A stretch of 4,194 nt of DNA from a virus (Duplodnaviria; Heunggongvirae; Uroviricota; Caudoviricetes): IMG/VR virus record IMGVR_UViG_2657245528_000005, one strand, 5' to 3'. Below the pieces are notes generated by a model, which was not told where the DNA came from, ran no database searches, and saw only the letters and a program-made list of their open reading frames with translations. How positions within the stretch are numbered: the first letter of the stretch is position 1; the number at the start of each line of letters is the position of its first letter. Shown here in pieces: positions 51 through 3,629 of this stretch. The translations under genes were made by a program, and so were the position numbers.

Positions 51-911
51 TCACCTGTCGAAAAACACGTAGCCAGTTTTCGATACGGTGATTGCGGATG
101 ATGGTTTGGATTGTGGTTGAATGGTTTCTGGCTTTTCGTCGTTCCAGCGCTGACCGTTCAGGTAGCTCGATGGTAACAACCTGTCGAATCCGAACTGCTT
201 ACCATTCCTGCATGCGATGTCTTCTGCCAGCATCGTGGCAAACTCGCTTGCCGTACCCCTGGTAGTTTTACGCCATTCCCTGAACTGTGTTCTGAATGCC
301 GAAGCTGCGTTTTTCTTCCCGGCCTTCCGCATGCCTGCACACCAGAATATTTCCTCGAATGCCTTGTCGGTTTCTTCGTGACGGTCAGATGATTTTTCAC
401 ACTCCGTCCGAACACTTTCGGACATAGTGTTTTTATTATTTCTTTTTTCTTTTGTAATAGTTTCTTTTGTGTGTCCCTGTTTTGGTGACAGCGCTGTCAC
501 CGTTTTGGTGACACTTTTTGTCACCAATGCAGTGACATTATCACCAGAGTAGTGACACCCTTCGATTTGCCATTCCTCGATGTTCTTGTTAGGCCCGATT
601 TGCTGGCCTTCGCGAAGGATAACCTTCATCGCGATAAGCTCATTCTTGGCCTTGTTTACCTTCTGTCTTGGCAGCCTGGTAATTTGAGCTAACTGACTAT
701 CAGAGATGCGATCCATCTTTTTACCGTAGCCGTATGTTTTACGGCATATGGCGTGGGCAACCTTGCTCTGATTTTTCGTTAAATCTGCGCCGATAAGCTC
801 TTCATACAGGGCATTTGCAAGACGGGTATAACCATCTTCAACTTCTGCCACACGACGCTCCACAGGCCGTTGTGAAGGCCTTAAATGTGTTACGGTTGCA
901 AGATTACTCAT
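51..911 (-). CDS. O: Lambdoid replication initiator protein O (286 aa)
   Basis: Provided ORF; GGAG SD upstream of the ATG at 911..909. N-terminal region resembles lambda O as I recall it (DGY.RL...GADLTK.Q.KV...RKTYG..K.MDRI.DSQL..IT.LP...GPNKNI.EW). ori iterons lie inside the coding sequence as in lambda. Located immediately after cII. Confidence 0.9.
428..560. repeat. Replication origin inside O: AT-rich tract (428..475) next to four spaced iteron-like repeats (484..501, 507..525, 531..545, 551..560)
   Basis: GGTGACAGCGCTGTCACC (perfect palindrome), GGTGACACTTTTTGTCACC, AGTGACATTATCACC, AGTGACACC at roughly 20-24 bp spacing, flanked by a T-rich tract on the side downstream in the O reading direction. 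Same architecture as lambda ori, but the repeat sequence is not lambda's. Confidence 0.7.
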
Positions 912-1482: not shown

Positions 1483-2835
<1,353 letters not shown>

Positions 2836-2885
2836 CCCTCACCTCAATTTCGACAACCAAAAAACAAACTATTTTCCGTTTAAAA

Positions 2886-2965
2886 ACAATGGAGTTTGTT
2901 TTTCACGCCCATTTTTACAATATTTCTTGTTTACAACATACAATCTTTCTTGTAATTTTAAGCCA
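2886..2965 (+). promoter_or_regulatory. Left operator OL with three 14-bp 434-type sites (2886..2899, 2917..2930, 2940..2953) and the pL promoter directed toward N
   Basis: ACAATGGAGTTTGT, ACAATATTTCTTGT, ACAATCTTTCTTGT (all ACAA-N6-TTGT). Candidate -35 TTTACA (2930..2935) and -10 TAATTT (2953..2958). The downstream sequence ATCAGCAGGACGCACTGACCACCATGAAGGTGA matches the start of the lambda pL transcript as recalled. Confidence 0.75.
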
Positions 2966-2997
2966 TCAGCAGGACGCACTGACCACCATGAAGGTGA

Positions 2998-3028
2998 GGC
3001 TCTTAAAAATTAAGCCCTGAAGAAGGGC
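2998..3028 (+). promoter_or_regulatory. nutL (boxA-like and boxB) N-utilisation site
   Basis: boxB GCCCTGAAGAAGGGC at 3014..3028, identical to lambda nutL boxB; boxA-like GGCTCTTAA at 2998..3006 (lambda has CGCTCTTAA, from memory). Confidence 0.9.
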
Positions 3029-3296
3029 AGCATTCAAAGCAGAAGGCTTTGGGGTGTGGTGAAGCCAGCTAGTCACTGGCAAGTGCTTACCTACTGTTGA
3101 GCGGTGAAGCGCTCCCAACGCTAGCAATAGCGTGGACGAGATGGGGAGCCGCGGGCGATAAGGCCGCCATAACGCGCACGTTGTCGCATGGAAAAATCGC
3201 TGGGGTGCCGGTTATACCCCTCCGAATGAGACTCAACAAGCTGGAGCTAGACTACCAGCCACCACACCACCAAAGCTAACTGACAGGAGAATCCAG

Positions 3297-3629
3297 ATGG
3301 ATGCACAAACACGCCGCCGCGAACGTCGCGCAGAGAAACAGGCTCAATGGAAAGCAGCAAATCCCCTGTTGGTTGGGGTAAGCGCAAAACCAGTTAACCG
3401 CCCTATTCTCTCTCTGAATCGCAAACCGAAATCACGAGTAGAAAGCGCACTGAATCCGATAGACCTTACGGTGCTGGCTGAATACCACGAACAGATTGAA
3501 AGCAACCTGCAGCGTATTGAGCGCAAGAATCAGCGCACATGGTACAGCAAGCCACGCAGTGAAATGGGTGTGACCTGTTCAGGCCGCCAGAAGCAACGTG
3601 GAAAATCAATTCCAGCTTATTGCGATTGA
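3297..3629 (+). CDS. N: Antitermination protein N (110 aa)
   Basis: Provided ORF; AGGAGAA SD upstream. N-terminus MDAQTRRRERRAEKQAQWKAANPLLVGVSAKPVNRPILSLNRKPKSRVESALNPIDLTVLAEY is the lambda N arginine-rich boxB-binding motif and NusA-binding region as recalled; the C-terminal residues differ slightly. Confidence 0.95.
   Translation: MDAQTRRRERRAEKQAQWKAANPLLVGVSAKPVNRPILSLNRKPKSRVESALNPIDLTVLAEYHEQIESNLQRIERKNQRTWYSKPRSEMGVTCSGRQKQRGKSIPAYCD

Follow-up and report, generated by a model that had tools for sequence, protein, structure and literature searches.

The leader between the early promoter pL and gene N of bacteriophage lambda is a textbook regulatory RNA, and its long hairpin is usually regarded as an invariable site for RNase III. 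According to two papers, the structured region of this leader lies between NutL and the Shine-Dalgarno sequence of N, is a substrate of RNase III within the loop of translational repression, and modulates the translational autorepression of N (PMC5725501, citing Wilson 1997, 2002; PMC5371410, citing Steege 1987). The ribosomal RNA (rRNA) operons have a comparable design, with a boxB-boxA site followed by a helix that is cut by RNase III and that encloses a structured RNA (PMC10250234). Here we analyse the N leader of a tailed phage (Caudoviricetes) contained in the IMG/VR record IMGVR_UViG_2657245528_000005, within a stretch of 4,194 nucleotides (nt) that we call the window. A GC-rich block that replaces the middle of the lambda leader had previously been noticed there from the sequence alone (the original prediction). 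Our preferred interpretation, to which we assign a probability of about 0.6, is that this block is the interior of an exchangeable apical module of the processing hairpin of the N leader, and that the module is probably excised.

We aligned the leader of the window with those of lambda (J02459), phage 434 (OL657226), HK544 and Sf6. From the pL start at 2965, the window coincides with lambda and 434 through nutL and up to GGCTTTGGGGTGTG, which ends at 3058; identity resumes at CACACCACCAAAGCTAACTGACAGGAGAATCCAGATGG / CACACCACCAAAGC, from position 3263, and extends through the Shine-Dalgarno sequence and the start of N. Exact alignment with lambda and 434 therefore bears out that the ends of the leader are lambda-like and its middle substituted, and places the swap at 3059-3262. 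Because 204 nt stand here for 94 nt of lambda, the leader spans 332 nt (from 2965 to the ATG of N at 3297) instead of 222 nt, in good agreement with the approximate 330 and 220 nt anticipated. The substitution falls, as had been supposed, in the structured region that in lambda holds the RNase III site, and it does not represent the standard leader of 434-type phages, because phage 434 itself carries a lambda-type middle. The contrast in composition is one-sided: the GC content is 0.58-0.62 in the block (3051-3250) and only 0.29-0.47 in the operator/promoter upstream, but it is also 0.55 in the N gene downstream, so that the surroundings are AT-rich on one side only. Shigella phage Sf6 and coliphage HK633 match the window from 2900 to 3330 with 99.8% identity.

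The replacement with respect to lambda is thus real, but the unit that is replaced is larger than the original prediction had it, since it includes the conserved halves of a stem, and it is one of at least 15 alternative modules occupying the site and not a variation specific to the comparison with lambda. The suggestion that the block could be the footprint of recombination was right insofar as the block is an exchangeable mosaic module. The limits of this module are best appreciated in contigs L526, L539, L518 and L525, where it is conserved almost in full (Table 1), although identity to the window falls to 53-66% in the remainder of the leader and in the stretches of 100 nt on either side. 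The same level of identity, 228 of 229 nt, is maintained across leaders with a lambda-type, a P22-type and a third type of nutL. In metagenome contigs, the module stands beside what we take to be a P22-type boxB and an antiterminator resembling the product of P22 gene 24.

For a census of what occupies this site, we used 80 viral contigs encoding a lambda-like N plus 120 contigs with the 5' flank, and sorted the interiors by their conserved flanks; further interiors came from a scan of genomes at the species level (type H) and from a search with the stem only, which retrieved leaders with other nut sites. Clustering by k-mers separated at least 15 mutually unalignable types of module. Those sitting on the shared stem include types A (59 nt), B (147 nt), C (217 nt, the type of the window), D (121 nt), E (106-108 nt, lambda and 434), F (72 nt), G (132 nt) and H (112 nt); type I (ca. 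153 nt, with many variants), a tRNA-Gly-like type and others are carried on the same helix in leaders lacking the lambda boxB. Type D is the leader module of the Stx phage 933W and its relatives. For every type, the predicted structure is a multi-branch junction carried by this long helix. Each of them was found with several classes of N alleles and with several immunity (oL/pL) types; for instance, five or more different oL/pL sequences accompany type C and, conversely, a single immunity type can be associated with types A, B, C, D and E.

The two strands of the closing helix are maintained in other phages by compensatory changes. The pairs immediately outside the module differ among leaders and yet stay complementary, being GGC/GCU in the window, AAC/GUU in L526 and UUUGC/GCAAA in L317; the lower stem changes from GG/CC to GA/UC in L223; and type B has another 9-bp helix of equal length with the same bulged A. 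These changes indicate that the closing helix is under selection, and each leader extends the helix in its own way. Recombination within the two conserved stem halves would be the simplest mechanism for the exchange of modules.

The sharp boundaries of the module, its identical sequence in different contexts and its terminal inverted repeat of 14-17 nt could also be those of an autonomous mobile element, similar to a miniature inverted-repeat transposable element or to an intron. We consider this very improbable: there is no target-site duplication at the boundaries of the module, whose flanks are complementary to each other instead of forming direct repeats; there is a median of one copy per genome, and all the copies examined are in N-type leaders or in deleted remnants of them; the module is a substitution relative to lambda and not a clean insertion; and it matches no intron family. 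A repeat of the ERIC/REP type was also rejected, because the search in Escherichia coli showed no dispersed copies.

Several arrangements of the modules deserve separate mention. In L526 (12760-13180), modules C and D are found in tandem, in this order, upstream of the antiterminator similar to that of P22 gene 24, and between them lies a duplicated segment that begins at the end of boxB, stops at codon 4 of the antiterminator and leaves behind a mini-ORF (open reading frame) of six codons. Contig L307 (minus strand) contains two sites ca. 730 nt apart on the same conserved stem, one of them with a G-type module and the other with a type of 70 nt. Two E. coli prophage remnants (L470:1501-1597 and L471:1501-1607) have deletion end-points inside module C, one joining a fragment of a late gene to the second half of the module and N, and the other retaining the first half of the module together with the repressor. 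Such partial copies (H108 and H109) are ordinary prophage deletions and were discarded as a second genomic context for the module.

Predicted folds of the window and lambda leaders have all their outer pairings in common. At the base, a segment just downstream of nutL pairs with the start region of N; above it there is a short CAG/CUG pairing and then, in both phages, the long helix. The conserved segments forming the helix, GGCUUUGGGGUGUG ... CACACCACCAAAGCU, are identical in the window and in lambda/434, and lie, as in lambda, between nutL and the Shine-Dalgarno sequence of N on the pL transcript. The module is closed by a helix of 17 bp with a bulged A, and the same long stem closes the structured region of the lambda leader. 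The hairpins of the two phages therefore agree in position, in the sequence of the lower stem, in the bulged A, in the pairing of the start codon, and in the accompanying nutL, Shine-Dalgarno sequence and N gene; they differ in the upper stem, which is GGUGUGUG/CACACACC in lambda and GGUGUGGUG/CACCACACC in the window, and in the interior, of about 90 nt in lambda and of 195 unrelated nt in the window. The 3' strand of the helix reads as helix, A and CCA, resembling the 3' end of a tRNA, with the A being the bulged base and the CCA pairing with UGG of the 5' strand. The minimum free energy of the whole leader is well below that of shuffled sequences (z = -4.2 for the window and -3.6 for lambda), and this significant stability comes from the closing stem, which is shared with lambda, and not from the interior.

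Table 1. Coordinates of features in the N leader of the window and the support for each.
Feature	Position	Strand	Support
pL transcription start (A of ATCAGCAGGACGCAC)	2965	+	Identical to the start region of lambda/434; the 434 record marks this base as +1
nutL, with boxA GCTCTTAA (2999-3006) and lambda-type boxB hairpin GCCCTGAAGAAGGGC (3014-3028)	2999-3028	+	Positions as annotated in lambda, HK544 and Sf6; pairing probability of the boxB hairpin 1.0
GCAUUCA, 5' partner of UGGAUGC (3298-3304) in the long-range pairing over the start of N	3030-3036	+	Probability 0.91; same pairing predicted in lambda
Closing helix, 5' strand: lower GGCUUUGG (3045-3052), upper GGUGUGGUG (3053-3061)	3045-3061	+	Pairing probability 0.97-1.0; inverted repeat
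Whole exchangeable module, CTTTGG ... CCAAAG	3047-3275	+	229 nt; 228/229 identical in L526, L539, L518 and L525
Segment differing from lambda/434 (block of the original prediction)	3059-3262	+	Alignment
First hairpin, GCCAG-CUAGUCA-CUGGC, after the helix and 'AA'; position of a tRNA D-arm	3064-3080	+	Probability 0.95; kept in the centroid
Hairpin CCA(A)CGCUA-GCAA-UAGCG-UGG, with GNRA-type tetraloop	3115-3135	+	Probability 0.86
Core of undefined structure	3137-3224	+	Pairing probabilities 0.3-0.5
Last hairpin, GCUGG-AGCUAGACUA-CCAGC, immediately before the 3' strand of the helix, where a tRNA would have its T-arm	3240-3259	+	Probability 0.99
Closing helix, 3' strand: CACCACACC (3260-3268), bulged A (3269), CCAAAGCU (3270-3277)	3260-3277	+	Folding; inverted repeat
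N Shine-Dalgarno (GGAG) and ATG (3297-3299)	3286-3299	+	Identical to lambda

In this anatomy, the module is the top of a long hairpin placed between nutL and the ribosome-binding site of N in the pL transcript. Lambdoid phages keep the halves of the stem (CUUUGG-GGUGUGGUG ... CACCACACC-A-CCAAAG) and exchange the interior, module C being the version of Sf6, HK633, HK544, mEp213 and similar phages. Because the module is attached at the apex, the lower end of the helix, the pairing of the start codon and the through-space distance from nutL to the Shine-Dalgarno sequence are predicted to be the same as in lambda, as if insulated from the apex, and the autoregulation of N and its relief by RNase III should in consequence work as they do in lambda. 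Cleavage of the stem would free an RNA of ca. 220 nt early after infection or induction.

A cis-acting regulatory domain is a different way of reading the same leader: the core of the module would bind a protein or a small molecule and alter the access of RNase III or the translation of N, whose control would then be unlike that of lambda. The block does lie inside an element that controls N translation in lambda (PMC5725501), and several hairpins with defined loops are predicted, including one with a GCAA tetraloop. However, folding predicts no change in the pairings at the base by which the start codon is sequestered, no riboswitch or leader family of Rfam matches, and the same N gene works with an apex of 59 nt, all of which makes this reading improbable.

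Modules with the features of a tRNA occupy the same site in other phages. In contig L317, a pL-like promoter accompanied by a boxA-like sequence lies on one side of the module and a short, arginine-rich ORF resembling N on the other; ARAGORN identifies it as tRNA-Gly(CCC), and it reaches 45.5 bits with the tRNA model of Rfam (RF00005; threshold 29). This tRNA-Gly(CCC)-like gene (L317:5482-5558) has a G where U33 would be expected. Likewise, a tRNA-Gly is annotated in Hafnia phage Pocitis76 (L354:1212-1291) just in front of the N gene. In the tRNA-Gly-like leader gene, the acceptor stem is lengthened by the conserved leader helix.

The modules of type G are also predicted to fold as a cloverleaf, in which a 9-bp acceptor-like helix and AA precede a D-arm of sequence GCUC-AAYGGC-GAGC; an extra arm of some length comes next, then the arm AUCGG-CAGCGCA-CCGAU, which does not vary, and, abutting the helix, a T-arm with UUCGAYU. 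An alignment of 14 non-redundant members of this family revealed compensatory changes in 10 of its 35 pairs, with covariation in the acceptor helix. A covariance model of the G family recovers the tRNA-like modules with 27.6-29 bits (E = 0.00015-0.00029), and aligns types B, D and H end to end, although only with scores at the level of chance (E about 0.5).

The distribution of the G family extends beyond the N leader. Its members, of ca. 131 nt, are unannotated (L358:5795-5925; L469:3501-3901, from E. coli CFSAN064035; L353:1501-1637, from Salmonella phage Skate) and absent from Rfam, where the single match is one of 20 bits to the tRNA-like domain of tmRNA. A query of 401 nt over the commonest form of G retrieved hits in 1274 of 5426 complete E. 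coli genomes, but the hits covered 80% or more of the query in only 135 of them. The single copy whose surroundings were examined is situated between the Q antiterminator and a holin gene; members are also found in some N leaders and, in the non-lambdoid context of phage Skate, beside a tRNA-Ile.

Module C shares its ends with type G, namely GGUGUGGUGAAGC at the 5' side and AAGCUGG...GACU.CCAGCCACCACACC at the 3' side. The arm GCUGG/CCAGC appears in module C, in type G and in L317 with the same stem sequence and at the same distance from the end of the helix, and its loop, in the position of the T-arm, is UUCGACU in G, UUCAAGU in the tRNA-Gly-like module of L317 and AGCUAGACUA in module C. Module C has, in order, a 9-bp helix, AA, a first hairpin, an abutting 5-bp arm and A-CCA, but for a tRNA the helix is 2 bp too long, and the CCA is paired to the 5' leader. 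In common with tRNA-like RNAs (the tRNA-Gly-like modules of Pocitis76 and L317, the G family, the tmRNA domain and the YrlA domain), it has a helix in which its two ends pair, a first hairpin preceded by two unpaired purines and, as in the tRNA-like modules, a last 5-bp hairpin with the same GCUGG/CCAGC stacked on the helix, and a 3' A-CCA; the comparison with YrlA, a bacterial Y RNA, is one of general architecture, together with the absence of an Rfam match. Unlike a tRNA, module C has a helix of 9 bp instead of 7 bp, lacks an anticodon arm and contains ca. 150 nt between the arms. Because its ends match those of tRNA-like modules in the same site, module C is probably an expanded and degenerate descendant of a tRNA-like leader RNA, although it is not a demonstrable member of the G family.

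Two coincidences in the sequence were examined and set aside. Module C shares an 11-mer, CAACGCUAGCA, and GAUAAG with the 153-nt type, and GCGGUGAAG with type G, which by our estimate is not significant given the number of comparisons made. A possible loop-loop pairing between UAGUC of the first hairpin and GACUA of the last one was noticed post hoc, has a probability of about 2% by chance and conflicts with part of a hairpin in the minimum free energy structure; we do not rely on it.

A number of results weigh against our interpretation. The interior of module C folds no better than its shuffled versions (z = -0.12; +0.38 for the opposite strand), contrary to the original expectation that the segment itself would be structured. 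Its copies differ by single substitutions only, without any compensatory change, and one double variant, C to A plus G to A, speaks against the predicted pair 3157/3200. With AGCUAGACUA and CUAGUCA as its loops, module C shows neither the T-loop UUCRANY nor the GG of a D-loop. It is missed by the covariance model of the G family, with a best score of 7.2 bits (E = 6.7) restricted to 3198-3268; ARAGORN finds neither tRNA nor tmRNA in the window; and a scan of the whole window with Rfam 15, at E values up to 1, gave no match in the leader, riboswitch, leader, intron and tRNA/tmRNA families included. The processing of this leader by RNase III is, moreover, extrapolated from lambda, and the near-identity of the copies of module C could reflect recent spread rather than selection.

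These properties would also fit an interior that is a mere passenger or filler, without a function of its own, left by phage recombination at an apex that tolerates any sequence. Apart from its poor folding and from its lack of homologues, covariation or known motifs, the same N gene is found with interiors as short as 59 nt and as long as 217 nt, which indicates that the site is permissive. Searches for diverged homologues of module C were also negative: blastn set for distant matches, in phages and in the E. coli genomes, gave only copies with at least 98% identity, and a pattern aimed at related module ends found no match in viral contigs.

The conservation of module C does not agree well with such a passenger. 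The block is 100% identical in 19 phage records, including Sf6, HK633, HK446, Sf101, mEp043, mEp213, HK544, vB_EcoP-720R6 and Bas106, and at least 98% identical in 69 places from 60 of the 5426 complete E. coli genomes; 17 metagenome copies are also near-identical, with single substitutions, and some of them are in foreign leaders. The hairpin with the GCAA tetraloop has a single variant, C to U at 3120 (locus L025), which gives a G-U pair. Among 20 distinct type-C loci, the nucleotide diversity (pi) is 0.0036 for the module (6 of 216 sites variable) versus 0.022 for the N gene (where 29 of 300 sites vary, 19 of these being third codon positions), so that the module is about six times less diverse than the gene adjacent to it. 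In addition, the module retains 99.6% identity in three unrelated leader contexts, other modules in the site are demonstrably selected structured RNAs, and a neutral insert of 200 nt in a phage genome of limited size would be expected to decay or be lost. The near-identity of all the copies suggests either purifying selection on the module as a cargo RNA or a recent spread. We regard a passenger interior as possible but unlikely, and retain the excisable apical module as the best explanation.

If excised, the module might act in trans as an early non-coding RNA on a target of the host or of a rival phage, for instance as a tRNA-shaped decoy for a defence nuclease that targets tRNAs or for a tRNA-processing enzyme. 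In its favour, the module is transcribed from the strongest immediate-early promoter, it is highly conserved, its tRNA-like ends are common to the tRNA-like modules of the site, and a bona fide tRNA-like module fills the site in other phages. Also, the neutralization of tRNA-cleaving defences by phage tRNAs is documented (PMC11464382). Nevertheless, module C has no anticodon arm and no signature of a T-loop or a D-loop, and such a role presupposes a stable fragment with a target or partner; we hold this role to be distinctly unlikely for module C.

A broader proposal concerns the site as a whole. The apex of the N-leader hairpin could be a dedicated, hypervariable expression slot for interchangeable phage non-coding RNAs derived from tRNAs, of which module C would be one. 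As the first products of pL, these RNAs would be released by RNase III (or RNase P) and would work in trans at an early stage, perhaps by decoying host RNA enzymes or defences that target tRNAs; the RNase III site of lambda would be a remnant of this cargo system. This is a speculative idea, and we judge it rather unlikely.

Coding capacity does not explain the block either. It contains an ORF of 60 amino acids that starts with TTG at 3097 and ends at 3279, besides ORFs on the minus strand, and a hypothetical protein is annotated here in the record of Bas106 and in a few genomes. However, the TTG start lacks a Shine-Dalgarno sequence; a set of 5.8 billion proteins contains only four clusters matching the product, all near-identical to it, and no diverged homologue; and none of the three ORFs of the block belongs to a Pfam or PHROG family. 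A small protein gene is thus extremely improbable, and the view that the TTG ORF is an artefact holds. A scan of 2850-3400 for promoters and terminators found none in the block, the sole terminator-like match being boxB read on the minus strand.

The window corresponds to the immunity and early-left region of a lambdoid phage, in an orientation reversed with respect to the lambda map. It contains an O-like gene, cII, a 434-type cro (minus strand) and a 434-type cI (1802-2434, plus strand), followed 3' of cI by a small ORF with a signal peptide, oL/pL, nutL and a lambda-type N gene (3297-3629). The small ORF (2431-2835, plus strand) encodes 134 amino acids with an N-terminal signal-like sequence, overlaps the stop codon of cI (ATGA) and is the counterpart of Sf6 gene 38; phage 434 has at this place an ORF whose annotation is Hex, a repressor-protection protein. 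The only Rfam match in the window is to Mu-gpT-DE (651-705, minus strand), with 20.3 bits against a gathering threshold of 49 (E = 0.26), and lies inside the ORF of a replication gene; it is probably due to chance.

A scan of genome contigs for boxB gave mostly matches that are due to chance or to contamination with lambda. Short contigs identical to the pL-N region of lambda (L210, L213, L231, L232, L254, L255 and others) appear in the assemblies of unrelated bacteria, such as Ancylomarina, Enterococcus, Nocardioides, Paenibacillus and Shewanella, among others, and most likely represent contamination with laboratory lambda DNA.

The hairpin of the window is a variant of the RNase III hairpin in the lambda N leader, with ends that resemble those of tRNA-like RNAs. 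The N leader and the leader-trailer helix of the rRNA operon have in common a Nus-dependent antitermination site followed by a long helix of distant segments that encloses an RNA, but the rRNA operon encloses 16S rRNA, whereas the N leader encloses an RNA of 0.2 kb and has an mRNA under translational control downstream. Similarly to the mosaic modules or 'boundary sequences' of lambdoid phages, the modules of the N leader are discrete and deeply divergent alleles that lie between short conserved flanks and reassort freely with their neighbours; unlike them, they are non-coding RNA inside a leader, and their conserved flanks are the two strands of a single RNA helix. The annotation of Sf6 marks boundary sequences elsewhere in the early left operon, and the sequence of the module has been in GenBank, unannotated, since the Sf6 genome. 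No account of an N leader with a variable or tRNA-like apex emerged from our search of the full-text literature, which did not extend to older work (Wilson 2002, Bothwell 1976 on the phi80 M3 RNA, Steege 1987, Degnan 2007 and the Sf6 genome paper), and a swappable RNA module in this position appears to be previously undescribed.

In all, the element in the N leader is better read as a constant processing stem with a variable cargo, for which there are at least 15 alternative contents, look-alikes of tRNAs included. The analysis also flags unannotated RNA elements in many phages and prophages, among them Sf6 and 933W and, for the related element downstream of Q, about a quarter of the complete E. 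coli genomes. Phages differing only in the module would provide a handle on the early delivery of non-coding RNAs against host defences, or else on the mere tolerance of the apex of the hairpin.

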